Notes under the pieces: generated by a model
The model's database searches: none
The model's input: only the letters and a program-made list of their open reading frames with translations
What the model was told of the DNA's origin: nothing
Program-made: the position numbers and the translations under genes
Part shown: piece after piece, positions 27,854 through 54,449 of the stretch
Numbering within the stretch: position 1 is the stretch's first letter
Layout: each line of letters begins with the position of its first letter
Origin: a bacterium
Lineage (GTDB): Bacteria; Patescibacteriota; SICC01
Reading direction: 5' to 3'
NCBI GenBank assembly: GCA_030699935.1
Contig: JAUYKS010000002.1
Coordinates: 65,018 to 129,017 of the forward strand
Length of the DNA stretch: 64,000 nt

Positions 27854-28873
27854 ATGTCAAAACATTCTTCAGCTGAAACCGGACTTCCGAACCCCGCCGA
27901 GTTCGTAACTCGTCTCGGACCAGTAGCCGAGCGTGTGAAAGAGCTATTTTCGGAGGTCAAGGAAACAGTCGTCGATTACGACCTTGAAGGCAATGCCTCG
28001 AGGTTGGAAACGTTGCAGGAGAAATTCTCCGGGGAGCAAACCCGCGCCGTCGCTCGCGATGACTTCGGTCCGGAGTTCGCCGAGAACGAGATCAGGCTGG
28101 CTGCCGTGAATGCCGAGCAAGTCGATAATACGTTCCTGCGAGAACAGCACGCTGGAATGAAACCGGATCTTGAGCACGCTGGCATGATGAAGCACACGTA
28201 TGAGGAGAACGCCGAACTATGGGCGCGAGTCCTTGGCGGAGAATCGACGGAGAAAGACAAAGAAATGCTTGGCGGATACATTGAGAACAATCGGAAGCGT
28301 CTTGATGAAGAGGTCGCAAGGGGTCATGAATTCGGATTCGATCGTTTGAAGGAGACTTCCGACGATCCCTCAAGCGTCGATGATTTGATCGAATACGCCA
28401 AACGTACCGATCAGTACGAGACCGGAAATCGGGACACTGAACGGGCCAACCGGGAACCCGTCGATCAGGAACGCTCCGACGAGGACCGTCAGAAAGAAGC
28501 GAACCGCTCCATAGCTTTCTCCAAGGAGGAATTCAGCAGGGCTCTTGGTTTCGAAATGCCGTTCCAACGTCTTGAGCTTGGTGACGACATCAGGTTGCGG
28601 GAAACGCTGGCCAAGCGTCTTGGCGAGATTCGTAAGACAATGACACGGGAGCGTGGCGCGGACTTCCGTGAGCAGAAGCAGAGGTTCGCCCCGCAAGTCC
28701 GCTCGTTATTCGAGGAGTTCGCACCGTCGAGCCAGGCTCGCGACAAAATCAGGCGCGATTTCGAGCGGGGCATGGAAGATCCCCGCGCCAGGGCACGCAA
28801 GGAGCAGGAGGAGCGGGTGAATCGCGCCAGGCAGCGGAACCGGACCGACCGCAATCATCGTACCGGTCGTTAA
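27854..28873 (+). CDS. Hypothetical highly charged (E/R/D-rich) protein, coiled-coil-like
   Basis: 339-aa ORF; GC slightly lower than context. Confidence 0.5.
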   Translation: MSKHSSAETGLPNPAEFVTRLGPVAERVKELFSEVKETVVDYDLEGNASRLETLQEKFSGEQTRAVARDDFGPEFAENEIRLAAVNAEQVDNTFLREQHAGMKPDLEHAGMMKHTYEENAELWARVLGGESTEKDKEMLGGYIENNRKRLDEEVARGHEFGFDRLKETSDDPSSVDDLIEYAKRTDQYETGNRDTERANREPVDQERSDEDRQKEANRSIAFSKEEFSRALGFEMPFQRLELGDDIRLRETLAKRLGEIRKTMTRERGADFREQKQRFAPQVRSLFEEFAPSSQARDKIRRDFERGMEDPRARARKEQEERVNRARQRNRTDRNHRTGR

Positions 28874-30072: not shown

Positions 30073-30667
30073 ACGCCAGGATCCGGCGAAGGACGACCAG
30101 AAGGGCCCGAAGGTCACGATCAAGCAGAAGGGCCCGCGGATCGAGCGGGATCCGGCGAAGGACGCCGGGAAACAGGCTCAGACCGGCGACCAAGCGCGCC
30201 AGGAGGTCGGATACGCCGGACCGTCTCCCGAAGAAGAGAACCTTCGCGAACAGATGGCGCGGCTGCAGGCCGACTTCACGAACTTCAAACAACGGACGGA
30301 ACGGGATCGGCTCCAGATGGTCGCGGATGCGCACGGCGACCTCGCCGTCCAGCTCCTACCGGTGATCGACAACTTCGACCGCGCCGCGGAGCACGTGCCG
30401 GAACAAGTCAAGAATGACCCGTGGTACACGGGCGTCGAGGGCATCCGCAAACAGTTCAACGACTTACTCAAGGAACTCGGAATCGAACGGATCGAGGCGG
30501 TCGGTCAGCCGTTCGACCCCGAGCTCCATGAAGCGCTCGGCCACGAGCCGAACGACGAGTACGGCAAGGACGTCGTCACCAAGGAGTTCGAAGCCGGCTA
30601 CAAGATGGGTGAGAAGGTCATCCGCCCGGCGAAAGTACAAGTATCAAGTGGGAAGCAAGGGTCATGA
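30059..30667 (+). CDS. grpE: Nucleotide exchange factor GrpE
   Basis: …LREQMARLQADFTNFKQRTERDR… and the C-terminal beta-domain are GrpE-like. Confidence 0.85.
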   Translation: MSTDKRQDPAKDDQKGPKVTIKQKGPRIERDPAKDAGKQAQTGDQARQEVGYAGPSPEEENLREQMARLQADFTNFKQRTERDRLQMVADAHGDLAVQLLPVIDNFDRAAEHVPEQVKNDPWYTGVEGIRKQFNDLLKELGIERIEAVGQPFDPELHEALGHEPNDEYGKDVVTKEFEAGYKMGEKVIRPAKVQVSSGKQGS

Positions 30668-30999
30668 CCGTCGAATCTCCGGAATTGCAACGGGCTCGTG
30701 AACTGAGTGAACGCTTGGATGCGGTTGAGGAATACCTCCGCGATAACCGAGTATCCTGGGAAGACTACATGGGCGATTGTCTCCGTGACACGATTCAGTA
30801 CATGAGCGTGTCTGGGAACACTCAGAACCCGGAGCTAAAGGAACTTTTCGGCGAGTTGTGCGAAAAACACGGAAGCGTTATGTGGGGAGGCAGCGAAGCA
30901 CAGTTGAAGAATCGTTTGGATATAGCAGGGCTTTTGTTGAAGCTTTCAGATAAGGGAGTTTCATTCCCGGATGAGTTAAATAAGAAAGGAGAAAAGTAA
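30664..30999 (+). CDS. Hypothetical small protein inserted between grpE and dnaK
   Basis: 111 aa; ATGA overlap with grpE; ends at the dnaK start; lower GC in its 3' half. Confidence 0.45.
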
Positions 31000-33684: not shown

Positions 33685-34971
33685 TTAGAAGTGAGCGTCC
33701 AGAGTTTTTTGCAGGCTGGCTTCCTTTGGCAAGTGGTTACCCCCGACGACCAGTAACCAGTTATCACGAGTGAGATAACGTTGTGCGGTATCGATCAGCT
33801 CCCCACGGTCTACCGCAGCGTATTCTCGGCGCCGCATTTCCGGACTGATGAGAGAACGATCCTCTGCGAACCGCTCTCCGTACCAGTCGGCGTAATCCCG
33901 CGGCGTTTCGTATGTCCGGGCCATACCGCCGATAACGTTTCCCCGGGCCAGTTCCAATTCGGAGTCTGTGAACCGTCCCCGGCGGAGCGCGGAAAGTTCG
34001 GATACGACCAACCCTAGAAGCGGCAGGAACTTACGCGGGTTGGTTTCAGCGCTGACCGTAAGGCCGGTCATATCACGATCGCTTCCCCTATCTACGTCGA
34101 TCCCATAGGCTAAGCCAGCCCGGCGTACTTTTTGGTACAACCGAGCCGAAGGGGATTCATCGCACAGAGCACAGAGTAAGCGCAGGCTAGCGAGGGAGCG
34201 TTCGTCGTAACCGGCCCGGGCGAAATCCAGCGAAAAGTACTGTTGGCTCCAACTCGCCGGCAGCAACTTGATTTTCCGCTGGAAGTTTCCCAGCCGGGCC
34301 GGCTGCCAGTCGATGCGCCGACCCCGCGGCCGGCCAGCTAGTAATCGGTTCAGTTCTTTCCTTAACCGCCTTACTCGCGCTGAGCCGAAAGGACCGGCTG
34401 CTACGAACCGCATGTTTCGGGTGCCGTACATTTCGCGATGGAAGCGGACGATATCAGACCGCCCGATGGTTTTCATGCGACGGACCCGGGCTTTCCAGGA
34501 CGGCCGGAGCGATGGGATCTGAGTCTGGTTCAACCGGTATCCCACCCGCCGCTCAGGGTCCTCTTGGTATTCATTAAGCTCCGATTCTATCACCTGTTTT
34601 TCTTGTTCGATCGAGCGTGTTTTGAACAAGGGTTCGAACAGCTGAGACACGGCCAGCGGAAGAATATTCCAAATCTGTTCCGGCGAAGTCGAAAATTCGT
34701 AGACGTTCTCATCCGGATTAGTGAGCGCGTTAGCGTACGAGCCGGTCCGGTCTATTGGTTCATTGAACGCCGGGCCGTTTGGATACCGTTTCGTACCTTC
34801 AAACGCCAGGTGCTCGAGCAAATGAGGAAGTTCGTAGTGTTGGGGGTTCGCGTACCGGTATCCGCTTCGCACATAAGTATTGAATTGGACAGACCCGGAG
34901 TGAGGGAGGTTGACCGCCAAGAGCTCTGCCCCGCTCTTTAGTGAATGGGTGCTGACCTGATGTTTCATCAT
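33685..34971 (-). CDS. M16-family zinc peptidase (pitrilysin-like)
   Basis: Inverted zinc motif HLLEHLAFEG (HxxEH) near the N-terminus. 428 aa. Confidence 0.75.
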   Translation of the reverse strand: MMKHQVSTHSLKSGAELLAVNLPHSGSVQFNTYVRSGYRYANPQHYELPHLLEHLAFEGTKRYPNGPAFNEPIDRTGSYANALTNPDENVYEFSTSPEQIWNILPLAVSQLFEPLFKTRSIEQEKQVIESELNEYQEDPERRVGYRLNQTQIPSLRPSWKARVRRMKTIGRSDIVRFHREMYGTRNMRFVAAGPFGSARVRRLRKELNRLLAGRPRGRRIDWQPARLGNFQRKIKLLPASWSQQYFSLDFARAGYDERSLASLRLLCALCDESPSARLYQKVRRAGLAYGIDVDRGSDRDMTGLTVSAETNPRKFLPLLGLVVSELSALRRGRFTDSELELARGNVIGGMARTYETPRDYADWYGERFAEDRSLISPEMRRREYAAVDRGELIDTAQRYLTRDNWLLVVGGNHLPKEASLQKTLDAHF

Positions 34972-38522: not shown

Positions 38523-38579
38523 GCGTCCAGGATACCAAGGAAGTGCCATATAATTATGGGTACGCAACGGCACCCAGTC

Positions 38580-38626
38580 TTGACAAAGTGCCCAAAATTT
38601 GCTATGTTAAGGCAATTTTCAAAGAT
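38580..38626 (+). promoter_or_regulatory. Conserved promoter block, copy B: TTGACA-N17-TATGTT + aaggcaattttcaaa leader, 18 nt before ATG 38627
   Basis: Same architecture as copies A, C and D. Confidence 0.55.
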
Positions 38627-41600
38627 ATGAACACGGGCATCACACATAAGGTAATCCTCGCGGCGGTAGTCGCGGCAGCGGGCGCGGTCATGGTAACGGC
38701 GCTCAGCCAAACGGCGTCGGACCCTTACGTCGCGAAGTCGCCGCCCGCCCCCCAAGCCGGCAAGGAAATCCGGAGCTTGACCAAGGTGAGCGGCCATTCG
38801 CTTGAGACGGTCAAGCTGAAGGACGGCAAGGAAACCAAGGCGGCCGCCGGGCATCTGGTGGTCCGCTTGGAGAATGACGCCGCCAAGCGGCAATTCGGGG
38901 ACCGGTTGACCGGGACCAGCATTCCGAATATCTATCTGTTGTCCGTCGACGAACCGGTCAGCCAGGCCCGCACCAAGGTCGCGGCGCTGCCGGGAGTGCG
39001 GAGCGCCACGCCGGACTTCGTCGTCGCGGCGACCCGCACGCCCGACGATCCGCACTACCCGTACCAGTGGGGACTGCCGAAGATCAAGGCGCCAGCCGCC
39101 TGGGACCGGACGGTCGGTTCTTCGTCCGTCATCATCGCCAGCATCGACACCGGGGTGAACGCCTCGCACCAGGACCTCTCCGGCAAGATGTGGACGAACC
39201 CGGGCGAGACCTGCGGCGACAACGATGACGACGACGGGAACGGCTACATCGACGACTGTAACGGCATGGACTTCGTGAACGGGACCAAGCCGGGCGGCGT
39301 CTTCAAGAACGACGCCAACGGCCCGGACGACGATCAAGGTCACGGGACGCTGACGTCGTCGGTCTTCGCGGCTGACACTGACAACGGCCTTGGCGTTGCC
39401 GGCGTCGATTGGAACGCGAAGGTATTGGCGATCAAGGTATTGGACTCCGACGGCTACGGGTTATTTTCCGACGTCGCGGAGGGAATCCGGTACGCTGGCA
39501 TAGTCGGCGCGGACGTCGCCAACATGAGCCTCGGCGCGGACGGACTGACCACCGAGACGATGACCGACACGGCGATCAACGAAGCGATCGCGGACGGCGT
39601 CATCCTAGCCGCCGCTTCCGGTAACGATGGTTACACGAACTCCATCAACTATCCGGCGATCAACCCGTACGTGATCTCGGTCGGGGCCACTACCTCGACC
39701 GACGCGCGAGCCGGCTATTCGAACGGCGGTTCGCAGCTCGACCTGGTCGCGCCAGGGTCGGGCATCCGCGGCGCCTACCTCGGCAACACGAGCTACGTCT
39801 CGGCCTCCGGCACCTCGCTGTCCACGCCGCACGTCGCGGGCGTGGCGGGATTGCTCCGAGCGCTGGACCCGGACGTCAGCTACTCCCGAGTCCGGACGAT
39901 CCTGAAGAGCACCGCCGATACCGTCTCCGGCATGAACGGAGCCACCCGCACCAACCTCTACGGCGAGGGCCGGCTCGATGCGAACGGCGCCCAATCCCTG
40001 ATCAAGGCCTACTCCAGCGAATGGGTCCGGCAGTCCGCGACCGCGACCGCGGCATCCGGAACCGACCGCGCGGTCTACGTCGACTACAAGAACGTCGGCC
40101 TGAACCCCTGGTCGAATACCGGATCGAACCCGGTCCGTCTCGGGACCAGCCACACCAAGGGGCATTCATCCCAGTTCTACAACACGTCCTGGCTGAGCAA
40201 GAGCCGTCCGGCCAGCTTCACGGGACGGGTCGAAGGCGACGGCAGCGTCACCGAGACCGACACCATTCAGCCCGGCGAGACGGCGCGGTTCAGCTTCACG
40301 ATGACCTCGCCGCCGCGGACGACCACCACGACGTTGCGCGAGTACTTCCAACCGGTCGTCGAAGGCGTGACCTGGCTCGAAGACCAGTCGAAGTACATCA
40401 CGACGACGGTACCGGGGCGGTACTACCGCGGCCAGTTGGTCGGGAAGACCAATCCGCCGCCGGTGGTCCTGGCAAACCAGCTCAGTCCGGTGACCGCCGA
40501 CGTGAAGAACACCGGCACCGCCACCTGGCGGAACGATACCTCCTACGACATGAGGCTCGGTACGGTCAATCCGGTAAGCCACAACAGCACGTGGTACGAC
40601 AGCGGTACCTGGCTGACGCGAAACCGGCTCGGCACGTTCGTCGGCAAGGTGTCGGGAGGCGTACTCACGCCGACTAATTCCATCGCTCCCGGCGAGACCG
40701 CCCGATGGTCGTTCCAAGTGAAGGCACCGTCCCGCGGCGGCACGTATCATGAATACTTCAGTTCGCTGATCGACTACTTCGGTTGGCAGAAGAACCTTAA
40801 CCTTGGTTGGACCCAGTTCGTGCCGAGCACCGCGTATGATTACAAGTTCGTAAGCAAGGCACCGCACTACCAGTACCTGGCCCGCGACGAGACGAAGACG
40901 ATCTACATCCGGCTCCGGAACATGGGATACGCCACCTGGCGCTCCAGCGGATCGGGTTCCGTCCGGCTCGGAACCGATCGTCCGCAGAACCGCGGCAGCG
41001 GATTCTCGGACGGCGGTACGGCGGCCGGCTGGATTACCAGCAACCGGATCAAGCTGGGCAGCAACCTGACGGATGCCGACAAGAACGTCGGCGGGGAAAC
41101 CAGCGTGGCGCCCGGCGAGATCGGTGAATTCGAGTTCGACATCGTCGGCAAGCCGCGATCGGGAACGTACAAGGAGTACTTCCGGCCTCTCGTCGAAGGC
41201 CGCGGCTGGATGAAGGACATCGGCATCAACTGGTCGATCACGGTGGAGAACCCGATCGACGTCGCGCTGACCAGCCAGTCCAGCGCGACCATGAGCGGCA
41301 CGAACACGGTTACGATCGTGGATGTGAACGGGACGAACCGCGGTACCGTCGCGCCCGCGACGGACTTCATTATGCGCAAGAACGGATCGCGCTATCAGGT
41401 ACTCCTGCCCGGCCCGGACATCGACTCCTGTTGCGTCCTGACGGCCCAGCAGGCGCCGGGCAACCGGTTCCTGGTGACGAACCTGGCTGACAACGGCAGC
41501 CAAAACTACTTCCGGGGCGAGATGTCGATCCGGACCGGCAGCGCCGGTACCCATCTGGTGAATTCCCCGAACCTCGAGCATTACTTGCGCGGCCTGGGCG

Positions 41601-42322
41601 AAGTGCCGGACAGTTGGCCGATCGAATCGATCAAGGCCCAGATCACGGCGGCCCGGACCTTCGCGGCCCGGAAGATTCAAAGTCCCCGGTCGAACACCTT
41701 CGACATCTATGACGATACGCGCGACCAGGTCTACAACGGCTACAACAGCGAACTGGCCAAGCCGAACCACGTCACGGCGGTCAATGCGACTACCGGCAAG
41801 GTGGTCAAACGGGACGGATCGCTGATCCAGGCATTCTACAGTTCGAACGCCGCCGGCCGCACCGCGGACAATGAGGATGTCTGGGGCGGCAGCCCGATCA
41901 ACTACCTGCGCGGCAAAGCGGACTCCTACTCGCTGGTCAGTTACACTTCCCACCTCTGGCCGGATACCACCTCGCGGGCGACAATCAAGGCTAACTACGG
42001 CTTCGGCTGTACGGTGACCGGCGTCGGCGTGGTCTCGAAGTACCCGGGCGACCGCATGCGGACGGTGCGGCTGGCCGGCTCGGGATGTGCCACTCGGGAT
42101 TACACGCTGGCCGCCGACACTCACCGCAGCCGGCTCGGCCTACCGTCCTCGCAGGTGACGAGCATCACCAAGAGCGGCACGAACTTCGTGTTCGGCGGGA
42201 AGGGCTTCGGGCACGGGATCGGCATGAGCCAATACGGCGCCTACAACCGCGCCGCGAACGGCCAGAGCTACGTAACGATCCTCCAGTTCTACTACACCGG
42301 CGTGACGATCGGGAACCTCTGA
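38627..42322 (+). CDS. Giant secreted multidomain protein: signal/TM anchor + subtilisin-like S8 peptidase + 3x ~110-aa repeats + C-terminal SpoIID/LytB domain
   Basis: S8 catalytic triad contexts DTGVN…, HGTLTSS…, GTSLSTPHVAG…. Three repeats ending in GTY(K/H/R)EYF…G(W/V)…. C-terminus …QVYNGY…AFYSSNAAGRTADNEDVWGG… is SpoIID-like. Start at MNTGITHKVILAAVV… (signal peptide); the upstream in-frame extension is rejected. Confidence 0.8.
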   Translation: MNTGITHKVILAAVVAAAGAVMVTALSQTASDPYVAKSPPAPQAGKEIRSLTKVSGHSLETVKLKDGKETKAAAGHLVVRLENDAAKRQFGDRLTGTSIPNIYLLSVDEPVSQARTKVAALPGVRSATPDFVVAATRTPDDPHYPYQWGLPKIKAPAAWDRTVGSSSVIIASIDTGVNASHQDLSGKMWTNPGETCGDNDDDDGNGYIDDCNGMDFVNGTKPGGVFKNDANGPDDDQGHGTLTSSVFAADTDNGLGVAGVDWNAKVLAIKVLDSDGYGLFSDVAEGIRYAGIVGADVANMSLGADGLTTETMTDTAINEAIADGVILAAASGNDGYTNSINYPAINPYVISVGATTSTDARAGYSNGGSQLDLVAPGSGIRGAYLGNTSYVSASGTSLSTPHVAGVAGLLRALDPDVSYSRVRTILKSTADTVSGMNGATRTNLYGEGRLDANGAQSLIKAYSSEWVRQSATATAASGTDRAVYVDYKNVGLNPWSNTGSNPVRLGTSHTKGHSSQFYNTSWLSKSRPASFTGRVEGDGSVTETDTIQPGETARFSFTMTSPPRTTTTTLREYFQPVVEGVTWLEDQSKYITTTVPGRYYRGQLVGKTNPPPVVLANQLSPVTADVKNTGTATWRNDTSYDMRLGTVNPVSHNSTWYDSGTWLTRNRLGTFVGKVSGGVLTPTNSIAPGETARWSFQVKAPSRGGTYHEYFSSLIDYFGWQKNLNLGWTQFVPSTAYDYKFVSKAPHYQYLARDETKTIYIRLRNMGYATWRSSGSGSVRLGTDRPQNRGSGFSDGGTAAGWITSNRIKLGSNLTDADKNVGGETSVAPGEIGEFEFDIVGKPRSGTYKEYFRPLVEGRGWMKDIGINWSITVENPIDVALTSQSSATMSGTNTVTIVDVNGTNRGTVAPATDFIMRKNGSRYQVLLPGPDIDSCCVLTAQQAPGNRFLVTNLADNGSQNYFRGEMSIRTGSAGTHLVNSPNLEHYLRGLGEVPDSWPIESIKAQITAARTFAARKIQSPRSNTFDIYDDTRDQVYNGYNSELAKPNHVTAVNATTGKVVKRDGSLIQAFYSSNAAGRTADNEDVWGGSPINYLRGKADSYSLVSYTSHLWPDTTSRATIKANYGFGCTVTGVGVVSKYPGDRMRTVRLAGSGCATRDYTLAADTHRSRLGLPSSQVTSITKSGTNFVFGGKGFGHGIGMSQYGAYNRAANGQSYVTILQFYYTGVTIGNL

Positions 42323-47226: not shown

Positions 47227-48423
47227 TCAATCCGCCCCAAGCACCTTGGCGACCAGGGTGAGGTCGTCGCGGACCAGACGCGGCATCAGGAACTTTTCCT
47301 CGACGATCTTCCGTCCGGCGGTGCCCATCCGCTTTGCCTTGGCCGGGTCGGCTGCCAGCTCCGCCATCCGGTCGGCGGCCTTCGGGATCGTCGAGACGAG
47401 GTAGCCGTTCCGGCCTTCCTCGATCTGCAGGGGTATGCCGCCGACGTTGCTGGCGATGACCGGCGTGCCGGCCCACAGCGCCTCGGTGACGGACAGCCCG
47501 AATCCTTCCCGCAGCGACTTCTGGACCGCCGCGACCGCCAAGGTCTGGAACGCCTTCACGGTCCGGTCGTCGGCTTCGTCGACCAGGATCAGCAGGCCGT
47601 CGTCGCCCTTGGCGGCTCCGCGCAGTTCCTTGACGATCATCGGTGCTTGCGGATCGTCGTCGGCGGTGTCGCCGACCAGGGCCAGCTGGAGTTCGGGCAC
47701 CTTCTGTTTGGCCAGCCGCCAGGCCTCGAGCACCCCCAGCGGATCCTTCCACTGGTCGAACCGCGATACCTGCACGACGAACGGCCGCGACAAATCGAGC
47801 GGGTAGGCGCGCAGAATCTCCTGCGCCTCGTCCTTGTCCATCGGACGGTTCTTCTTCGAATCGGCGTCGATCGCCGGCGGGATAATCGCCAGGTGCTCCG
47901 GCGAGAATCCCGGCAACCGGAACGACTCCAGGCTGAAGATGCCGCCAGCATAAGGCAGCAGGTACTTGGCCATCCGGTTCGCGACCCCGCCGTGCGGATC
48001 CGAGCTGTCGAGATGACAGCGCCAGATCCACTTGGTATCCGAAGCGTCGACCCGGAAGTACGGGATCGCCGCCGGCTGCGGATCGTGGACGATGATCGCG
48101 TCCCACTGGGCCGGGGCCACCTTCTTGGCCATGTCCTTGCTGACCGCCTCGTAGTATCGCCATTCGGTAGGAGAGAGGCCGGTGTGTTCGCCCTGCAGGG
48201 CGTTGTGGATCTTCTTCGTGACCTCGAAGAACCCGGCCGGCGGTTCAATCACCTGCCAGTCGGCCTTGATCCCGAGGTCCTGCAGCATCGGCACCTCGGA
48301 ACGCAGGATTTCCGCCACCCCGCCGCCGTTGGCAGTGGCGCTCAGGTGGAGGATACGCTGGCCTCGGAGCGCATCGGTCAGGCCTTTGATTTCGGTGTCC
48401 AACGATTTCACTTCGTTCATCAT
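47227..48423 (-). CDS. GT4 glycosyltransferase, TreT (trehalose glycosyltransferring synthase)-like
   Basis: N-terminal …SATANGGGVAEIL…WQVIE…FFEVTKKIHNALQG… resembles the TreT family. C-terminal GT1/GT4 fold. Confidence 0.6.
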   Translation of the reverse strand: MMNEVKSLDTEIKGLTDALRGQRILHLSATANGGGVAEILRSEVPMLQDLGIKADWQVIEPPAGFFEVTKKIHNALQGEHTGLSPTEWRYYEAVSKDMAKKVAPAQWDAIIVHDPQPAAIPYFRVDASDTKWIWRCHLDSSDPHGGVANRMAKYLLPYAGGIFSLESFRLPGFSPEHLAIIPPAIDADSKKNRPMDKDEAQEILRAYPLDLSRPFVVQVSRFDQWKDPLGVLEAWRLAKQKVPELQLALVGDTADDDPQAPMIVKELRGAAKGDDGLLILVDEADDRTVKAFQTLAVAAVQKSLREGFGLSVTEALWAGTPVIASNVGGIPLQIEEGRNGYLVSTIPKAADRMAELAADPAKAKRMGTAGRKIVEEKFLMPRLVRDDLTLVAKVLGAD

Positions 48424-48503
48424 AGAGGACTATTGGCGCTGGGCTTAGCCGAAGGTCGGCGGCATCGCTTGCTGGGCGTACGCCGTTACAGTTAACTGAA
48501 ACC

Positions 48504-49625
48504 ATGCCGAAAACAAAAAAGAGGCTTCGGGTCGCGATGTTCGCGGGGAATACCCACCCGATACCTCCGAAGGACATCATCATGGCCAATTTTTCGATTG
48601 CCTTGGCGATCGCGGATGGCATGAAGGCCCGCGGTCATGATGTAACGCTCTTCGCGGCGGAAGGAACCCGCACCAAGGCCAAGCTGGTGACCAATGGAAT
48701 GCTTCCGTTGACCGAGACTTCCTTGTCCAGTCTGATCAAGGAGCAACCGACGGGATTCACGGCCCGCGAACCTGAGCGGTCGACGGCCTTTTATGCCCAG
48801 ACGATGATCAGCGAATTGTATCGTCGGCACCTCGCACGTCCTTTTGATCTTATCCATCACCATCAAGTGATGCGTCCGATCCATTACGCCAAACTGACCA
48901 AGACTCCACACCTCTTCACCGTTCACGATCCGGTTACCCCCCTCTCGAAATGGCTCTACGGTTTTTACGCCAAGACGAAGAACGTCAATTTCGTCGCATT
49001 GAGCCGGAACCAGCGGCAATGCGCCCCGAAGTTGCCGTGGGCAACTACGATACACAACGGCGTGGATGTCAAAGAGTACCCGTTTAAGGAAACTCCAAAG
49101 GACTTTCTCATGTTTGCCGGACGGATTACCGCGGAGAAAGGTCCGCATCGTGCCATCATCGCTGCAAAACAAGCGAAAGCCCCGCTGAAGATTTTCGGCC
49201 CGTACGGAGGACAGGGTACTGATAATCAGGATTTCTGGGAGGAAGAAATCGCTCCTCGTCTGAGCGCAAAGGTGACGTTCGAAGGTTTTCGTGAGCGCCT
49301 GTCCCTCATTCGCGAATACGCCAAAGCCCGGGCGGTCCTCATGCCGATCACCTGGGAGGAACCTTTCGGCCTCGTTGCCATCGAGGCGATGGCCTGCGGG
49401 ACACCGGTGATCGCCTTCAAGCGGGGCGCCCTGCCGGAAATCGTCGTCCATGGTAAGACGGGCTTCCTCGTGAACTCAGTGGACGAGATGGCCCGTGCGA
49501 TCAAGCGGATCGACCAGATTGACCGGGCTGCCTGCCGCCGCCACGTGGAACAGCACTTTTCGATCGAACGGATGGTCGACAGGTACGAGCGGGCGTACTA
49601 TGCGTTGGCCAAAAGGCCCAAATAG
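48504..49625 (+). CDS. GT4-family glycosyltransferase
   Basis: …EEPFGLVAIEAMACGTPVIAFKRGALPEIVVHGKTGFLV… E-x7-E donor-binding motif. Confidence 0.75.
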   Translation: MPKTKKRLRVAMFAGNTHPIPPKDIIMANFSIALAIADGMKARGHDVTLFAAEGTRTKAKLVTNGMLPLTETSLSSLIKEQPTGFTAREPERSTAFYAQTMISELYRRHLARPFDLIHHHQVMRPIHYAKLTKTPHLFTVHDPVTPLSKWLYGFYAKTKNVNFVALSRNQRQCAPKLPWATTIHNGVDVKEYPFKETPKDFLMFAGRITAEKGPHRAIIAAKQAKAPLKIFGPYGGQGTDNQDFWEEEIAPRLSAKVTFEGFRERLSLIREYAKARAVLMPITWEEPFGLVAIEAMACGTPVIAFKRGALPEIVVHGKTGFLVNSVDEMARAIKRIDQIDRAACRRHVEQHFSIERMVDRYERAYYALAKRPK

Positions 49626-50620
49626 GTACGTTCGTATTCATCTACCATCCGGCGCAAGGAAAAATGCTCGATGGCGTGCTGGCGGGCCGTCCGCCGATCC
49701 AGTTCACCGATCCGGCGGACGTATTTGGTAAGTCCCGCCGGTGTCTTCGCTAAGAAGCCGGTCTTGCCATGGACTACGAGCTCCGGCATCGCCCCGCGCG
49801 GTGTAGTCAACACGGGCGTGCCGCAGGACATGGCTTCGACCGCGACCAATCCGAACGGTTCCTCCCAGCGGAGCGGTGAAAGCAGTCCGACGGCGCTTCT
49901 CAGTAGTCGGACCTTTTCGGTCAGGCTGACTTCTCCCACGTACCTGATTTGCTTGGAGAGGTATGGCCGTATCTTCGTTTCGAAGTAACCCCGGTTTTCC
50001 TTCGCAATCATTCCCGCGATGACCAGAGGCACCTTGGCTTTGCGCGCGATTTGTACGGCATCGCCCGCACCCTTCTTTTCGGAAATCCAACCGAGCCAAA
50101 GGAAATAGCCCCCGCCGCCTTTTCCGAAGGCGTGGCGATCGGTATCGACCCCGTTATAGATGGTCTTGGTAAACTTCGCGCCTCGATACAATGTCCGCTG
50201 CTGCTTCGAAATGGCGATCAGGTGCGTGTACTTGCTGGCGTCGCGGAAAAAGACCTCTCGCTCCTTGTTCCATCCGTTATGGATAGTCGACGCCATCGGT
50301 GCTTTCAGGAGAGGTGCGAAGGATAGGGCGACGTTATCGAAGTGGTTCGACCAGAGTTCTATTCCGCGATCCCGCGAGAAAATCTTGAGGAGATGGTCGG
50401 CATGCACGATCCCGCGCAAGGACTCGGAAATGTCCCTGATTTCCCGTGGCCACGTGGTGACGAGATTCCCTTTGAATTTGGAACCACTGGCTGCGAATAG
50501 CGTGACCTTATGTCCGCGCTCCAAGAGACCGTTCGCGAGTTGGTCGATAATCCTTTCGACGCCCGCATGACCGGTCGGGGGAATTTTCCTGTATAGCGGC
50601 GCGATGACTCCGACGTGCAT
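49598..50620 (-). CDS. GT4-family glycosyltransferase (paralog of 48504-49625, convergent, 3' ends overlap 28 nt)
   Basis: …EEPFGLVAVEAMSCGTPVLTTPRGAMPELVVHGKTGFL…. Confidence 0.75.
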   Translation of the reverse strand: MHVGVIAPLYRKIPPTGHAGVERIIDQLANGLLERGHKVTLFAASGSKFKGNLVTTWPREIRDISESLRGIVHADHLLKIFSRDRGIELWSNHFDNVALSFAPLLKAPMASTIHNGWNKEREVFFRDASKYTHLIAISKQQRTLYRGAKFTKTIYNGVDTDRHAFGKGGGGYFLWLGWISEKKGAGDAVQIARKAKVPLVIAGMIAKENRGYFETKIRPYLSKQIRYVGEVSLTEKVRLLRSAVGLLSPLRWEEPFGLVAVEAMSCGTPVLTTPRGAMPELVVHGKTGFLAKTPAGLTKYVRRIGELDRRTARQHAIEHFSLRRMVDEYERTYLGLLANA

Positions 50621-50787
50621 ACGACAATCTTAGCTAAAAAAAGGAACGCCGACCTGCTGAGAGCATGCTGCCGGCAATTGTACCCTCAGCACAAGTAACT
50701 GGTATGAGGGTATAAATGCCTGAGCGTGACGATTTATCTGTTGGATACCCGACGGTTGTTACTCTCCGCTGGTGGTACGATTTGCGC

Positions 50788-51381
50788 ATGACAGTCGTTA
50801 TCGCTAGCAAATGCCAAGAAGGTGTGCTGTTGGCTTCGGATACACGAGGAAGGCAGTATATCCCAGACGTTCGTGAGAAGGAATCGGTAGATGGTGTTAG
50901 TAAGATTTTCCCCATGAGCGACAAGGTGGCTGTGCTGTCTTTTGGAGCAGGCCTGCAAGACTTCGACAAAAGGCTAGAAGGCCACGCTAAATCACAAAAA
51001 GCGAACATTGCTGCTGGCTTGATTAAGGATCAACCGGACTTAGATTTGTTCAAGAACACACTTCCTCACTTCTTCAATTACACCTACCTTGACCAGCCAG
51101 ACGACATGGAAGATTCTGCTGGGTTCTTGCTGGTTAGTAAGAATGAAACATATAGTCTGCACTCTAACTCCGATTTTGCGCCAGAAAAAATAGATGCTGA
51201 CTACAAAGTGGCTGGTGTTCCAGATATTCTGTTTGAGGGGGATAAGAAACTGACGGCCAGAGAAACCGCTGATCGAGCCATTAAAGCCATAGAGTATTGC
51301 GCCAAGAAGTATAAAGACGACGTAAACAACGATGTTCAGATGTGGCTTATCACTGACTCCGGTATGTCCCGCTTTACATAG
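50788..51381 (+). CDS. Orphan HslV/proteasome-beta-like Ntn-hydrolase
   Basis: After Met: TVVIASKCQEGVLLASDTRG… (Thr1, Asp17, Lys ~33-38) and …VAVLSFGAGLQDF…, parallel to HslV TTIV…GDGQ…AGFAGG. Low-GC (~45%) islet; no HslU nearby. Confidence 0.5.
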   Translation: MTVVIASKCQEGVLLASDTRGRQYIPDVREKESVDGVSKIFPMSDKVAVLSFGAGLQDFDKRLEGHAKSQKANIAAGLIKDQPDLDLFKNTLPHFFNYTYLDQPDDMEDSAGFLLVSKNETYSLHSNSDFAPEKIDADYKVAGVPDILFEGDKKLTARETADRAIKAIEYCAKKYKDDVNNDVQMWLITDSGMSRFT

Positions 51382-51411
51382 TCAAACCACCGCCATACGA
51401 TAACTCCGTTA

Positions 51412-51912
51412 ATGCCTAAGAAGCAGCCAGCCACCGAAAAAGAGAAGACTATCGTCGGGGCGGTAATTCTCGCGGTATTCTCTGTATTCGCACTAACGGC
51501 CTGTACCGGTGGGAGCGACGACAGCGATACAAACGACACGACAAACAATCAGGCTAACGAATCTGTTAAAGAAACCCCGAAAAACGAAGAGTCTTTAGTC
51601 GATAAGGTCGAGGTAGCACTGGATAAATTGGGCGAAGGATATAAAAGTGAGCTGGCTTCAACGAACGGCGGCTATCGGGGCGATATAATTAGCGTTGAAC
51701 CAGCCGTAGGTGACGATACCGTTAAAGTTAATGTATCGACTCGCTTTAAAGACTCGGGTGATGAACCTGATGGCGGTAGAAACATAGCTCGCAGGATATT
51801 CGGCAGTATTTGTCTTGATGTTCCAGAGCTTGAAAGTCTGTATGTGGTAAGCAGTTCTGGATTGGAAAGTAAGTCAGTATATCGCAGTCAAATACCTGGC
51901 TGTAAGCAGTAG
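51412..51912 (+). CDS. Hypothetical lipoprotein (low-GC islet)
   Basis: Signal peptide + lipobox LTAC. Confidence 0.5.
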   Translation: MPKKQPATEKEKTIVGAVILAVFSVFALTACTGGSDDSDTNDTTNNQANESVKETPKNEESLVDKVEVALDKLGEGYKSELASTNGGYRGDIISVEPAVGDDTVKVNVSTRFKDSGDEPDGGRNIARRIFGSICLDVPELESLYVVSSSGLESKSVYRSQIPGCKQ

Positions 51913-51974
51913 ATCAGTAGTCGGCAGAAGCGAGTAGAATATGAGTGTGGCTGAGAAAAACCCAGTATCCCTCA

Positions 51975-52990
51975 ACGCTTTCAACCGATTGCTTAACCGC
52001 GCTTCGCAACCGGCAGCGAAACCTGCGAAACCAAAGCGTCGAACATCCCGCCCTGCAAAGTCCGGTGGGAATACCGCCAGCCGTACTCGTTAGCGTAAAG
52101 CTGTAGGTACTTCGGGCTGACGTGCCGGTACACGCCGGTTATGCCTCGTTTGAGGTGTGACCAGATATTCTCGATGTTCTGGGTGTGAACCGATCCGCTG
52201 ACGTACTGCTTCCGCTGGTGCTTGATACCGTCGTGGGTAAAGCCGACCTTGTGGAGTTTCGAGTAAACCCCATGTTCGTCATGGTAAATGGTCGCGTCCG
52301 GCGCGACGTTGAGGACAATAGGCGGGGTCAGGGCTTCGGTTCCGGTGTGGGGGACATGGACGAGCTTGGCCTTTCCGCCTCGTGAAACCATGCCGAACAC
52401 AACGGCCTTATCCTGATGTCCGCCTCGGTTACTGTGCTTCTTATCAGGGTGCCGGTTCTGGTCTGCCCCGCCGACAAACGTTTCATCCACCTCGACTTCG
52501 CCGGACAGCATTTCGCCGTCCTCGGCAGACATGAGCGTTCGTATCTGCTTGGCGATCCGCCACGCTGTCTTATAGGTCACGCCAAGCTCCCGCTCCAACT
52601 GCTTGGCCGAGATACCAGCGCGGGTCTGAACCATGAGGTACATGGCGTAAAACCACAGCCAGAGTGACGTGGTGGACTTCTCAAAGACCGTACCGGCCAA
52701 CGGGTAGACTTGGTACCCGCAGTTGCAGGCATAGCTGGTACGTCCCTTAACACGGGACAGCTCGTTTTCCCGTCCGCACTTCGGGCAGGTGAAATCACGG
52801 AAGCGGATTTGCCGTATTTCCTCTAGGCACGCAGCGTCATCAGGGAACCGCTTACGGAAGTCTGCGATGGTGAACCTGTCGTCCATAGGCACATATTAGC
52901 AGCTAACCTACTTGTAGTCAAGGTATAAGTGCCATGCTGCCAGCCTTGACTATTAGCACCTTTTGTGTTATGGTTAAGCAATTTTCAAAC
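51975..52990 (-). mobile_element. IS1595-family (ISXO2-like) insertion sequence, ~1 kb, bounds approximate
   Basis: Single transposase ORF. 11-bp terminal inverted repeats ATTGCTTAACC (51988-51998) and GGTTAAGCAAT (52972-52982). Sits in a low-GC islet. Confidence 0.7.
51993..52892 (-). CDS. IS1595-family transposase (DDE, N-terminal Zn-finger)
   Basis: …FTCPKCGRENELSRV…YACNCGYQV… zinc ribbon, HTH (…LGVTYKTAWRIAKQIR…), ISXO2-like DDE domain. Confidence 0.85.
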   Translation of the reverse strand: MPMDDRFTIADFRKRFPDDAACLEEIRQIRFRDFTCPKCGRENELSRVKGRTSYACNCGYQVYPLAGTVFEKSTTSLWLWFYAMYLMVQTRAGISAKQLERELGVTYKTAWRIAKQIRTLMSAEDGEMLSGEVEVDETFVGGADQNRHPDKKHSNRGGHQDKAVVFGMVSRGGKAKLVHVPHTGTEALTPPIVLNVAPDATIYHDEHGVYSKLHKVGFTHDGIKHQRKQYVSGSVHTQNIENIWSHLKRGITGVYRHVSPKYLQLYANEYGWRYSHRTLQGGMFDALVSQVSLPVAKRG

Positions 52991-52992
52991 CT
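52946..52992 (+). promoter_or_regulatory. Conserved promoter block, copy C: TTGACT-N17-TATGGT + taagcaattttcaaa leader; outward-facing at the IS right end, ending at the galT ATG
   Basis: Same block as copies A, B and D; contains the IS right inverted repeat. Confidence 0.55.
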
Positions 52993-54000
52993 ATGGAAAA
53001 TTATCCCTCAGAGCTGCGGCGCGGACATCTCGACCATCGGTGGGTGCTGATCGCCTCCGGACGGGCCGACCGTCCCCAGGACTACATCAATCACACGCCG
53101 TCCAAGGTGCGGCGCGATCCCTTCTCCCCGGAGAACATCCGGAAGGAGGACATCATCGACCTGATCCCGAACAACGACGGCACCGAGTACGAGACGCCGA
53201 GCACCTGGAAGGCGATGGCAGTGAGGAATCTCTACCCGTTCGTCGGGAAGGTCGCAGGCCGGAAGCCGCGCTCCACCGGCGACATCCGAGACGGCGTCGG
53301 CGCGCACGAGATCATCATCCACTCGCCGGATCCCGACCGGGACTTCGGAAGCTTCGAGTCTGAACAGGCGCAGGCGGTCCTCGAGCTCTACCTGAAGCGG
53401 TACAACCACCTCTCGCACATGCCGGAGGTCAAGCATGTGCAGATCTTCACCAACCGTGGCAAGGAAGCGGGAGCCTCGGTCGTGCACCCGCACACCCAGG
53501 TGGTTGCCTTGCCGGTCGTTCCGCCGTACATCAAGGACCTGGTCCGGATCGCCGGCAAACACTACGACAAGAGTCAGTCCAAGCTGAGCGAGGACGAGGT
53601 CGAACGGGAAATCCACGAGGCGTCCCGGGTGATTTACGAGAATTCGAAGTTCCTGGTGTACTGCCCGTTCGCGCCCTTGGCCGACTACCACATCCGGATC
53701 ATGCCTAAGGAGCGGGGTTCCTACTTCCATGAGATCACCCAGGAGCAGGTCGAGCACCTGTCGCGGGTCCTCAACCTGGTCTTCCGGCGGCTGGACCGGA
53801 TCGCCGGCATCCCGCCCTACAACGCTTACATCCGGACGGCGCCGGTCGGTGCCGACGAGAAAAGGCTGCGCGGGTTCCGCTGGCACATCGACATCCTGCC
53901 GCACCTGGCGATTCCCGGCGGCCTCGAGATTTCCACCGGACTCACCGTGGTGACGGTCTTCCCCGAGGACGCGGCGCATGCCCTAAGGCAGGATTCATGA
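52993..54000 (+). CDS. galT: Galactose-1-phosphate uridylyltransferase (HIT-like class II GalT)
   Basis: …ASGRADRP… and the HxHxQ motif (VVHPHTQVVALP). Confidence 0.7.
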   Translation: MENYPSELRRGHLDHRWVLIASGRADRPQDYINHTPSKVRRDPFSPENIRKEDIIDLIPNNDGTEYETPSTWKAMAVRNLYPFVGKVAGRKPRSTGDIRDGVGAHEIIIHSPDPDRDFGSFESEQAQAVLELYLKRYNHLSHMPEVKHVQIFTNRGKEAGASVVHPHTQVVALPVVPPYIKDLVRIAGKHYDKSQSKLSEDEVEREIHEASRVIYENSKFLVYCPFAPLADYHIRIMPKERGSYFHEITQEQVEHLSRVLNLVFRRLDRIAGIPPYNAYIRTAPVGADEKRLRGFRWHIDILPHLAIPGGLEISTGLTVVTVFPEDAAHALRQDS

Positions 54001-54449
54001 TCATGTCTGACGAACGCAAACAACCCGACCAACCCGGCAAGGACGGCTCCGACAAGGACCGACCCGGACGGAACGAAGTCCGGCTGGAGCGCGACGGAAT
54101 CCTCCGGATCTACTACCGCGGCCGGCAGACCGCGGAGGGGATTAAGGCGCTCGGCGAGGAGTCCGATGCCATCGCCGAAGCGCTGCAGGAGCGCGGCGAG
54201 CCGGTGATCATCCTGGTCGACGTCGCCGACCTGGGCGCGTTCGGGCAGCCGGAGATCGCGGCCTGGCGCCGCCTGATGGCCACCCGTTCGTTCGAGCGGA
54301 TGGCGATCGTACACCTGAACCCGGCGCTGCAGGTCGTGTTGCACTTCCTGGTCAAGATGTCGAACCGCAAGGACAAGGTCGAGGCATTCGACGACGAGGT
54401 CAAGGCGATCGACTGGCTGCAGGAAGCCGCGACCGGACAGCAGGACTAA
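53997..54449 (+). CDS. Hypothetical protein (possibly STAS-like)
   Basis: 150 aa; 4-nt overlap with galT. Confidence 0.4.
   Translation: MIMSDERKQPDQPGKDGSDKDRPGRNEVRLERDGILRIYYRGRQTAEGIKALGEESDAIAEALQERGEPVIILVDVADLGAFGQPEIAAWRRLMATRSFERMAIVHLNPALQVVLHFLVKMSNRKDKVEAFDDEVKAIDWLQEAATGQQD

Follow-up and report, generated by a model that had tools for sequence, protein, structure and literature searches.

A putative stand-alone proteasome-beta-like Ntn hydrolase on a low-GC islet beside an IS1595-family element in a Patescibacteria-like genome

Introduction

Anbu, BPH and 22 further orphan families of proteasome homologues have been described, and none of them has a co-occurring AAA+ partner (Fuchs, Alva and Lupas 2021, PMC8665760). 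The C-terminus of Anbu is a long, coiled-coil-forming helix (PMC8665760). Its operon contains COG2307, COG2308 and a transglutaminase-like gene (PMC3235984). The first-pass annotation of the DNA studied here called a stand-alone proteasome-like protease unusual. With these families already described (PMC8665760), that description does not hold.

We analyzed a gene for such a protein in a 64-kb stretch of DNA, the whole of which is called the window. The gene lies on a low-GC islet, next to a lipoprotein gene and an insertion sequence (IS). To our knowledge, no dedicated proteasome-like family has been described in Patescibacteria or Saccharibacteria.

Results

Judged by its sequence, the first gene of the islet encodes a stand-alone proteasome-beta-like Ntn hydrolase (MEROPS T1 / PF00227 superfamily) with its catalytic residues intact. 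Taken alone, the window protein matches the Pfam Proteasome model (PF00227) only over residues 3-53 (E 0.027), and its 14.6 bits fall under the gathering score of 22.4. Zero matches were returned for it by NCBIfam, PADLOC and PHROGs. On the other hand, PF00227 matches six of the seven family members, with a best E of 4.1e-8. So, the homology of the window protein is supported transitively. A phmmer search of PDB sequences with the window protein as query gave nothing relevant. With the seven-member profile, 49 of the 51 PDB matches at E <= 1 were 20S subunits, and the best (E 2e-4) was nearly full length.

Four residues, T2, D18, K39 and G53, are invariant in the seven members at about 30% pairwise identity. 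Since they are conserved despite such divergence, the active site seems to be subject to purifying selection. In the HMM alignment they line up with T1, D17, K33 and G47 of Plasmodium beta5. This agrees with the first-pass annotation, which had placed Thr, Asp, Lys and a GAG loop as in HslV and 20S beta subunits. The Met-Thr pair is also invariant (7/7), and four members begin there. The family does not keep the Ser129/Asp166/Ser169 network found in active beta subunits. Most members have glycine at position 129, with serine in P0002 only, and in place of region 166-169 all members have a V-N-x-N motif (VN.N). Because this network is not conserved, catalytic competence is not assured.

The structural model, built on seven sequences only, predicts the alpha-beta-beta-alpha sandwich (strands S1-S10, helices H1-H4). 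This predicted fold agrees with what had been proposed, and the catalytic residues, the N-terminal threonine among them, are superposed on it through the sequence alignment. The model has helices at 59-75 and 85-100 and ends in a strand at 192-195. Its H3 region is shorter. A single-sequence AlphaFold model, with a pLDDT of 32.7, was discarded.

The Ntn proteins are a small new clade within a known superfamily that is rich in orphans. An exhaustive HMMER scan (phmmer) of 1.84e9 representatives found four relatives and a profile search two more, bringing the clade to seven sequences out of about 15 billion proteins. At least two of the six relatives come from Ca. Saccharibacteria MAGs, and all the named sources are Ca. 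Saccharibacteria or Patescibacteria MAGs. The identical, intact protein is present in three more contigs (one from another MAG assembly, two from sequencing-run assemblies). The word-index homology search returned only the protein itself. In the GTDB genome scan, the contig of L008, a Saccharibacteria relative, was the sole match. No relative was found in IMG/VR, nor in the JGI metagenomes with a protein pattern. In tblastn, 50,697 phage records gave chance-level matches and 72,556 plasmids gave none. Searching with a DNA pattern built on the WWYD..MT region gave 21 loci, all of them unrelated.

Table 1. Positions of the features described in the text, numbered along the window.
Feature	Position	Strand	Remarks
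Long ORF, 221 aa	50716..51381	+	NCBI record call, P0001, 'hypothetical protein'
Ntn-hydrolase (proteasome-beta-like) domain, 197 aa including Met	50788..51381	+	in-frame internal ATG at 50788; predicted from sequence
Codon of Thr1	50791-50793	+	
Codon of Asp17	50839-50841	+	
Codon equivalent to Lys33	50902-50904	+	
Codon equivalent to Gly47	50944-50946	+	
Hairpin (RNA/DNA)	50664..50728	+	3' arm holds Shine-Dalgarno GAGGG and the upstream ATG (50716)
Conserved block ATGAGGGTATAA + ATG + CCT	50704..50721	+	Shine-Dalgarno, 5-nt spacer, start codon of the long (221-aa) form
Putative 24-residue N-terminal extension/propeptide MPERDDLSVGYPTVVTLRWWYDLRM	50716..50787	+	last residue Met(-1), then Thr1
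TGG-TACGAT, extended -10-like element	50773..50781	+	exactly 6 nt 5' of the internal ATG
Promoter-like site TTTACA-17 nt-TACGAT	51373..51401	+	promoter scan; overlaps the end of the Ntn gene, 5' of the lipoprotein gene
Lipoprotein gene, 166 aa	51412..51912	+	signal peptide, lipobox LTAC with Cys31
Low-GC islet	50621..51987	.	Ntn gene, lipoprotein gene and 75-nt tail
Islet border, one side: start of GT4 glycosyltransferase gene	49598-50620	-	
Islet border, other side: left end of the IS			
IS1595-family IS, about 995 bp, discrete unit	51988..52982	-	Ntn and lipoprotein genes lie outside it
IS1595-family transposase ORF	51993-52892	-	Pfam DDE_Tnp_IS1595, E 8e-39, plus Zn ribbon

The internal ATG gives a form that begins MTVVIASKCQEGVLLASDTRG. 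It is the Met-Thr protein of about 197 aa that had been described, in frame inside the longer ORF (Table 1). The N-terminus is ambiguous from the sequence, given that a conserved upstream Shine-Dalgarno and start codon would add a propeptide of 24 aa. The block with these two signals is the same as in L008 at 17 of 18 nt, although the proteins are just about 33% identical. Its sole difference is in the start codon, A to G (ATG vs GTG). The extension is in frame and stop-free in both, with 24 codons in the window and 29 in L008. The stretch ...VV(T)LRWWYD(L/F)(R/H)M is kept between them, and one leucine of the extension is encoded by different codons, CTC and TTG.

Alternatively, the segment between the two ATG codons may be a 5' UTR or promoter rather than a coding extension. 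All four short-form relatives present a perfect TATAAT exactly 6 nt ahead of ATG-ACN, and at the same position the window and L008 have TACGAT. In beta subunits, residue -1 is usually glycine; the long form here would have Met(-1). The hairpin over the upstream signals has an MFE of -32.1 kcal/mol (z = -5.5), which 0/200 shuffles equal. It was rejected as a conserved regulatory element, being missing in L008.

The Ntn gene was probably taken up as mobile-element cargo by a high-GC Patescibacteria-like genome. The GC content of 50640-51912 is 0.470, compared with a mean of 0.635 (sd 0.028; z = -6.0) over every 1273-bp window of the stretch outside 48400-53000. This is the lowest-GC point of the whole window. 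In 100-bp steps, GC across the islet stays at 0.42-0.52, against 0.63 window-wide. Codon usage also points to a foreign islet, with GC3 values of 0.50 for the Ntn gene and 0.44 for the lipoprotein gene, vs about 0.85 for typical native genes. Among the remaining ORFs of at least 120 aa in the window, GC3 ranges from 0.63 to 0.90. So, the measurements bear out the first-pass annotation both in the contrast of about 45% vs about 65% and in the position of the gene on a foreign islet beside an IS, which is of the IS1595 family. Elsewhere in the window, a 111-aa ORF at 30664-30999 has a GC3 of 0.54.

The terminal inverted repeats that bound the IS, ATTGCTTAACC, are perfect over 11 bp and lie at 51988-51998 and 52972-52982. 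The flanks of the IS, TTTCAACC and TTTCAAAC, match at 7 of 8 positions. In L008, the Ntn gene is inside a 3516-bp IS1595-family transposon, together with an IS1595 transposase. The element has 24-bp inverted repeats at 9957-9980 and 13449-13472 (19/24 match), and a perfect 10-bp direct repeat, CATACACAAG, flanks it as target duplication. So, the gene is a passenger in L008, between terminal repeats and with a target-site duplication. In the window, no outer inverted repeats unite the Ntn gene, the lipoprotein gene and the transposase as one transposon. A 13-nt repeat pair (50577/52995) was rejected as transposon ends, because it lies within two native-looking genes and is attributed to chance. 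An IS1595 transposase adjoins the Ntn gene in three of the five loci.

The absence of an HslU or ARC partner from the window, noted earlier, was borne out among the 28 ORFs scanned with Pfam, about half of those in the window. They include no HslU-, ARC- or Mpa-type ATPase, and RuvB is their only AAA+ protein. At the five Ntn loci (window, L004, L006, L008 and L012), no AAA+ gene adjoins the Ntn gene (0/5), and no neighbour is conserved across them. A role in defence or virulence had also been suggested. We found nothing in its support, and PADLOC gave zero matches for the Ntn protein or its neighbours in four loci.

The lipoprotein has a low-complexity linker followed by a conserved domain, about 100 aa long, in which two cysteines are invariant. 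Its gene runs in the same direction as the Ntn gene, 30 nt away. It belongs to a family of 15 proteins, separate from the Ntn family. Its PHROG 'Sie-like' matches fall mostly on its signal peptide and linker; we gave them no weight as functional evidence. In a Patescibacteria MAG, a copy with 79% identity has another upstream gene and another IS1595 element beside it. Both homologue loci examined (L015 and L017) are without an Ntn gene. Homologous DNA shared between loci stops at the promoter-like site, precisely between the two genes. This site contains the 14-mer TACGATAACTCCGT, common to three loci, and is conserved in L008, where it follows the Ntn gene, and in L015, where it precedes the lipoprotein gene. 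The protein downstream of the Ntn gene in L008 is small and membrane-anchored, with no homology to the lipoprotein (blastp E 0.1). L004, L006 and L012 have no comparable downstream gene. In a strain variant, the lipoprotein gene is frameshifted and the Ntn gene intact. We rejected the lipoprotein as a conserved partner, considering that each family occurs without the other. It is a neighbour, since its own family is found elsewhere without the Ntn gene.

Discussion

Taken as a whole, the gene probably encodes a stand-alone Thr1 hydrolase of a tiny proteasome-like clade that moves horizontally as accessory cargo. The mature protein would begin with the threonine at residue 25 of the 221-aa ORF. 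The O-gamma of this Thr1 would be the nucleophile, Lys33/Asp17 would relay the proton as in 20S beta subunits, and Gly47 would form the oxyanion hole. The enzyme would most likely work as a peptidase or amidase that needs neither ATP nor a dedicated AAA+ unfoldase, possibly as a ring oligomer. The free threonine could result from removal of Met after initiation at the internal ATG, perhaps leaderless like the short-form relatives. It could also result from autocatalytic cleavage of a 24-residue propeptide, with initiation at the upstream Shine-Dalgarno and ATG. The Ntn gene would travel horizontally, here on an islet beside an IS1595 element and in a relative as a transposon passenger. The lipoprotein gene and the IS would be independent neighbours with no functional partnership.

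A more specific version appears doubtful. In it, the window/L008 branch makes a proprotein whose propeptide of 24-29 residues, up to Met(-1), is self-processed to expose Thr1. The clade would be a transposon-borne ATP-independent protease, exchanged among episymbiotic Saccharibacteria as adaptive cargo (e.g. for nutrient peptide turnover or host interaction). If true, this would be the first propeptide-bearing proteasome homologue besides beta subunits and HslV.

Other explanations were weighed. We consider it unlikely that Thr1 is used for a non-degradative reaction, as in a connectase-like sequence-specific ligase/transpeptidase or a small-molecule amidase, acting as a monomer or small oligomer instead of a self-compartmentalising protease. 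The lost Ser129/Asp166/Ser169 network and the shortened H3 region of the window protein are consistent with this, and connectase performs ligase chemistry on the same fold (PMC8665760). One family member weakly matches the model of the connectase N-terminal domain (E 0.046). Connectase (MJ0548 family) also resembles the window protein in the proteasome fold, in Thr1 and in working without an unfoldase. Nevertheless, it lacks H1/H2 and has a two-helix S3-S4 insertion, while the predicted structure here has both helices and no insertion. Somewhat less likely still is a decaying, functionless cargo, a pseudo-enzyme unexpressed in its host. The strongly foreign GC3, the upstream start signals occluded by the hairpin, the degenerate -10-like element (TACGAT vs TATAAT) and the extreme rarity of the family fit such decay. 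Against it speak an intact ORF, the occurrence of the identical protein in three further contigs, four catalytic residues that do not vary among members at about 30% identity, and a Shine-Dalgarno block kept with a change that preserves a start codon.

It is very improbable that the protein is an HslV-type subunit of an ATP-dependent protease, with an HslU-like (or ARC/Mpa-like) partner encoded elsewhere in the genome. The compact size (about 197 aa), the Met-Thr N-terminus, the bacterial origin and the lack of a C-terminal H5 helix are all HslV-like. Nevertheless, there was no match to curated HslV models, HslV was not the closest structural class, and no AAA+ (HslU) gene is adjacent in the five loci. 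The least probable explanation is a defence or virulence module of two genes, the Ntn hydrolase and the lipoprotein. They are co-directional and close to each other, on foreign DNA next to an IS, and in L008 a small membrane-anchored protein is also encoded downstream. However, that protein is unrelated to the lipoprotein, three other Ntn loci have no such gene and two loci of the lipoprotein family have no Ntn gene. The break in DNA homology between the genes, the empty PADLOC result and the strain variant also go against the module. The lack of co-occurrence largely refutes it.

The stand-alone Thr1 hydrolase, our preferred reading, can be compared with the described systems. The 20S beta subunits (PF00227, MEROPS T1A) have the Ser129/Asp166/Ser169 network, which the window protein does not keep. 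Unlike them, it is under the Pfam gathering threshold, is predicted to lack the H5 helix, has no alpha-subunit gene or proteasome operon nearby, and would have any propeptide end in Met and not Gly. The Ntn gene also differs in riding mobile islets of Patescibacteria-like genomes. The H5 helix of Anbu seems to be missing too, as the modelled protein ends directly after its last strand. The COG2307, COG2308 and transglutaminase-like genes are absent at all five Ntn loci.

The window protein resembles BPH and the 22 orphan families (e.g. PPH and AAH, which are spread by phages, and the compact group I), which are also stand-alone, with uninformative gene context and narrow distribution (PMC8665760). 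Other orphan families named there include WPH, PHI, PMI, CPH, DPH and FC1-5. The orphan families retain the catalytic triad and Gly47, as here, and some are spread on mobile elements or phages. Bacteria are already known to harbour many proteasome relatives without a partner, so the clade is not a new kind of system. The general picture is unchanged, with orphan proteasome homologues without ATPase known as numerous, diverse and common in bacteria. To this family the locus adds a tiny, previously unannotated clade, and documents a proteasome homologue as passenger of an IS1595-family transposon. The protein is also a compact candidate for biochemical work on minimal Thr1 hydrolases without the Ser129/Asp166/Ser169 network.

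The low-GC islet and its surroundings

With a GC content of 0.470, the islet deviates more in composition than any other part of the window. Equal-sized windows outside it have a mean of 0.635 (sd 0.028), which gives z = -6.0. GC3 is 0.50 in the Ntn ORF and 0.44 in the lipoprotein ORF. The other window ORFs of at least 120 aa range from 0.63 to 0.90, with typical native genes near 0.85, and a 111-aa ORF (30664-30999) has 0.54. Composition and codon usage both bear out the low-GC islet described in the first-pass annotation. Reduced GC3 (0.54-0.63) also occurs in four ORFs, an M16 peptidase gene among them, which may likewise be foreign or have been acquired recently.

The islet breaks up what would otherwise be a yebC-ruvC ... 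ruvA-ruvB neighbourhood. The same stretch carries three GT4-type glycosyltransferases, a GalT/HIT-like gene and a STAS-like gene. An insertion of about 7 kb separates ruvA-ruvB from ruvC-yebC and comprises a native-GC TreT-like glycosyltransferase, two GT4 paralogues, the islet, the IS and the GalT/HIT-like and STAS-like genes. The paralogues are convergent and slightly overlapping, with intermediate GC, 35% identity and GC3 of 0.70. This arrangement points to layered acquisitions. Elsewhere, a 1259-aa ORF combines subtilase (S8), SpoIID and Ig-like domains, an unusual fusion.

Features of the window and of related loci (window positions unless a locus is named)
Feature	Position	Strand	Details
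Low-GC islet	50640-51912		
Ntn ORF	50716-51381	plus	from ATG 50716, 221 aa; in-frame ATG 50788, 197 aa, MTVVIASK...
Lipoprotein ORF	51412-51912	plus	signal peptide and lipobox LTAC
IS1595-family transposase gene	51993-52892	minus	Pfam E 8e-39
IS terminal repeats	51988-51998; 52972-52982		ATTGCTTAACC, 11 bp, perfect
Direct repeat, 14 nt	51966-51979; 53002-53015		just left of IS; 5' end of GalT-like gene
Hairpin	50664-50728		-32.1 kcal/mol, z = -5.5
Three-codon mini-ORF	50704-50718		ATG AGG GTA TAA
TGG-TACGAT	50773-50781; with ATG, 50773-50790		
Promoter-like site	51373-51401		TTTACA-17-TACGAT
Breakpoint 14-mer	51396-51409; L008:10700-10713; L015:5985-5998		TACGATAACTCCGT
TATAAT and start	L004:9989-10003; L012:9520-9534; L006:10007-10021; L010:359-373		short-form relatives
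IS1595-family element	L008:9947-13482		3516 bp
Other IS1595-family transposases	L015:5501-7500; L012:10322-11260; L008:12544-13425		
Gene cluster ending with P0006	L006:5273-10648		
Insert in ruv stretch	47240-54446		
ORFs of reduced GC3	8245-9279; 27854-28873; 30664-30999; 33685-34971		
1259-aa fusion ORF	38543-42322		

Identity and fold of the Ntn protein

Taken alone, the window protein reached Pfam Proteasome with E 0.027 and 14.6 bits (threshold 22.4), over residues 3-53 only. It had no match in NCBIfam, PADLOC, PHROGs or PDB sequences. A word-index search returned only the protein itself, annotated 'hypothetical protein'. Exhaustive HMMER searching of 1.84 billion cluster representatives yielded four relatives with 30-40% identity. 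Two more came from a profile search, giving seven members in all; one of these additions, P0003 from a Ca. Saccharibacteria MAG, carries the name 'Proteasome subunit'.

All but one of the seven members match PF00227 (best E 4.1e-8). When the family profile was compared with the PDB, 49 of the 51 sequences with E <= 1 were 20S proteasome subunits. The best match was Plasmodium beta5 (E 2e-4), and beta2 alignments span positions 5-197. T2, D18, K39 and G53 of the window protein align with Thr1, Asp17, Lys33 and Gly47 of the 20S subunits, and all four are invariant across the family. AlphaFold2 gave a pLDDT of 32.7 with the single sequence. With the seven-sequence alignment it gave 81.8 and a pTM of 0.82, and strands and helices follow the expected order. 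Foldseek with this model retrieved over 1000 PDB chains (E <= 1e-3), the top 50 all being 20S beta subunits. The predicted fold and the residue conservation show a proteasome-like Ntn hydrolase. An Ntn fold with corresponding Thr, Asp and Lys had been read from the sequence at first pass; the HMM search and the structure prediction uphold it, through family-profile alignments and fold scores of the predicted model rather than coordinate superposition.

Long and short forms of the N-terminus

The 197-aa protein originally described is obtained from the in-frame ATG within the longer ORF. The window and L008, the locus of the closest relative (P0002, 33% identity), have in common a near-identical 18-nt block, ATGAGGGTATAA-(A/G)TG-CCT. 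The block can be read as a GAGGG Shine-Dalgarno and a start codon with a 5-nt spacer between them. Its single difference is ATG in the window against GTG in L008, both start codons. From this conserved start the frame runs on for 24 codons in the window, and for 29 in L008, to VV(T)LRWWYD(L/F)(R/H)-Met-Thr. These features argue for a translated extension, a putative propeptide that would need cleavage before Thr1. The short form has its own evidence. All four short-form relatives start with Met-Thr and have a perfect TATAAT exactly 6 nt before ATG-ACN, which suggests leaderless mRNAs in these Saccharibacteria-like genomes. TGG-TACGAT occupies the equivalent position in the window and L008. Since it sits exactly where these relatives carry TATAAT, the 'WWYD' conservation could be a relic of an extended -10 element, or one still active, for an internal leaderless start.

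A very stable hairpin in the window buries the upstream Shine-Dalgarno and ATG. L008 has no equivalent, and the hairpin is specific to the window insertion site because the segment shared with L008 does not include its left arm. We consider the long-form and short-form routes about equally likely, and either would give a Thr N-terminus. Among proteasome-like proteins, only beta subunits and HslV are known to have propeptides (Fuchs et al., PMC8665760), so a genuine propeptide would be a distinguishing trait. The mini-ORF of three codons abuts the long-form start and is kept in L008.

Gene neighbourhoods and mobility

Five loci gave usable gene context (window, L004, L006, L008 and L012). None has an adjacent AAA+ gene or a conserved neighbour. 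In L004 (Saccharibacteria, 474-kb contig), opposite-strand genes lie on both sides of the Ntn gene. In L006, the gene (P0006) closes a run of four co-directional genes, with a convergent gene after it. An IS1595 transposase gene comes directly after it in L012. In L008 (uncultured Candidatus Saccharibacteria), the genes for a 184-aa membrane-anchored protein, not homologous to the window lipoprotein, a DUF3800 protein and an IS1595 transposase follow, all within a low-GC patch of a 62% GC contig. In line with the first-pass annotation, the 28 window ORFs scanned with Pfam, about half of the total, include no HslU/ARC ATPase or other unfoldase, and RuvB is the only AAA+ protein among them. The suggested defence context found no backing, as no PADLOC model matched the Ntn protein, or its neighbours in four loci.

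The L006 cluster before P0006 encodes a bPH_2 protein, a 1070-aa SF2 helicase and a 293-aa protein with a weak DUF2779 match. It adjoins two serine recombinase genes and an AAA_25 gene, has no specific PADLOC system and looks like an integrative element.

The L008 Ntn gene lies inside an IS1595-family element. It ends in inverted repeats of 24 nt (GCTCCTATATATCTGACAAACCCA and GCAATTATATACTTGACAAACCCA), and a perfect direct repeat of 10 bp outside them, CATACACAAG, is the target duplication. The transposase gene is at one end, and the passengers are three genes, for the proteasome homologue, the 184-aa membrane protein and the DUF3800 protein. This element is a transposon with a proteasome homologue as passenger. 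An IS1595 transposase adjoins the Ntn gene in three of the five loci, serine recombinases lie near P0006, and in two high-GC hosts the Ntn genes are compositionally foreign. By these signs the family behaves as cargo of mobile elements. Searches of phage, plasmid and IMG/VR collections returned no member.

The window IS forms a discrete unit (about 995 bp) flanked by TTTCAACC and TTTCAAAC, with the Ntn and lipoprotein genes outside it. We found no outer repeat in the window enclosing both genes with the IS. The 14-nt direct repeat reads TATCCCTCA(AC/GA)GCT. A short ORF at 51941 opens with a stretch (..EKNPVSL..) resembling the GalT N-terminus MENYPSEL. Repeat and ORF may represent a duplicated gene start. 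The four IS1595-family transposases (window, L008, L012 and the lipoprotein locus L015) are different, with 36-46% pairwise identity where compared, and adjoin small accessory genes. They lie in low-GC patches in all three high-GC contigs. IS1595 seems to be the dominant IS type tied to these islets.

The lipoprotein gene as a separate cassette

The lipoprotein belongs to a family of 15 proteins with a common C-terminal domain of about 100 residues and two invariant cysteines. A TM anchor is present in most of them; the lipobox is confined to the three closest members. A 79%-identical copy lies in a low-GC patch of L015 (Patescibacteria MAG), after an unrelated gene of 142 aa and ahead of a different transposase of the IS1595 type (46% identity). 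Neither L015 nor L017, another lipoprotein locus, has an Ntn gene nearby. DNA homology between the window and L015 is limited to 51396-51912, and that with L008 stops at 51409. Both overlap in a 14-mer, also written TACGATAACTCCG(T/C); around it, the three loci have in common either the Ntn gene upstream or the lipoprotein gene downstream. The 14-mer supplies the -10 element, and the bases after it, of a promoter-like site found by consensus scan. As homology breaks there, the two genes are separate cassettes joined at a promoter, which suggests that promoter boundaries are sites of cassette shuffling.

A 1-nt deletion (GG to G) near 51860 frameshifts the last 16 conserved lipoprotein residues, including an invariant Cys. 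It is present in other contigs of the same population (GCA_034375485.1, L001:2330 region, and one read-set assembly, L003), where the Ntn protein is unchanged. It reflects either variation in the population or an assembly error.

Proposed mechanism and comparison with known proteasome homologues

We infer the activity, substrate class, oligomeric state and maturation route of the enzyme. It would be a threonine hydrolase of the T1 type. Once Met has been removed or a propeptide cut off by autolysis, Thr1 would attack the scissile bond. Lys33 and Asp17 would act as proton relay, and Gly47 would stabilise the oxyanion. The enzyme would act with no unfoldase dedicated to it, in line with what has been proposed for Anbu, BPH and the orphan families; its gene has no adjacent partner and is mobile.

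The family departs from active 20S beta subunits at several sites. The Ser129 equivalent is Gly in most members, and an invariant V-N-x-N motif stands in place of the Asp166/Ser169 stretch. In the predicted model, the C-terminal H5 helix of canonical beta subunits is missing and the H3 region of the window protein is shortened. No member matches the NCBIfam HslV or bacterial proteasome models; the sole NCBIfam matches are to archaeal beta (E 1e-3). Beyond its own six, the window protein has no phmmer-level relatives.

A stand-alone protease of this kind was at first considered unusual. However, such proteins are already well documented. They include Anbu and BPH (Valas and Bourne 2008, PMC3235984) and 22 further proteasome-like families with no co-occurring AAA+ partner (Fuchs, Alva and Lupas 2021, PMC8665760). 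According to the latter authors, phages spread some families and many more are predicted to exist. Our sequences fit among these homologues. They are best filed as a new small clade of them, the named families being compared by description only. This clade is set apart by its occurrence only in Patescibacteria/Saccharibacteria MAGs where the source is named, its IS1595-linked mobility and a possible Met(-1) propeptide.
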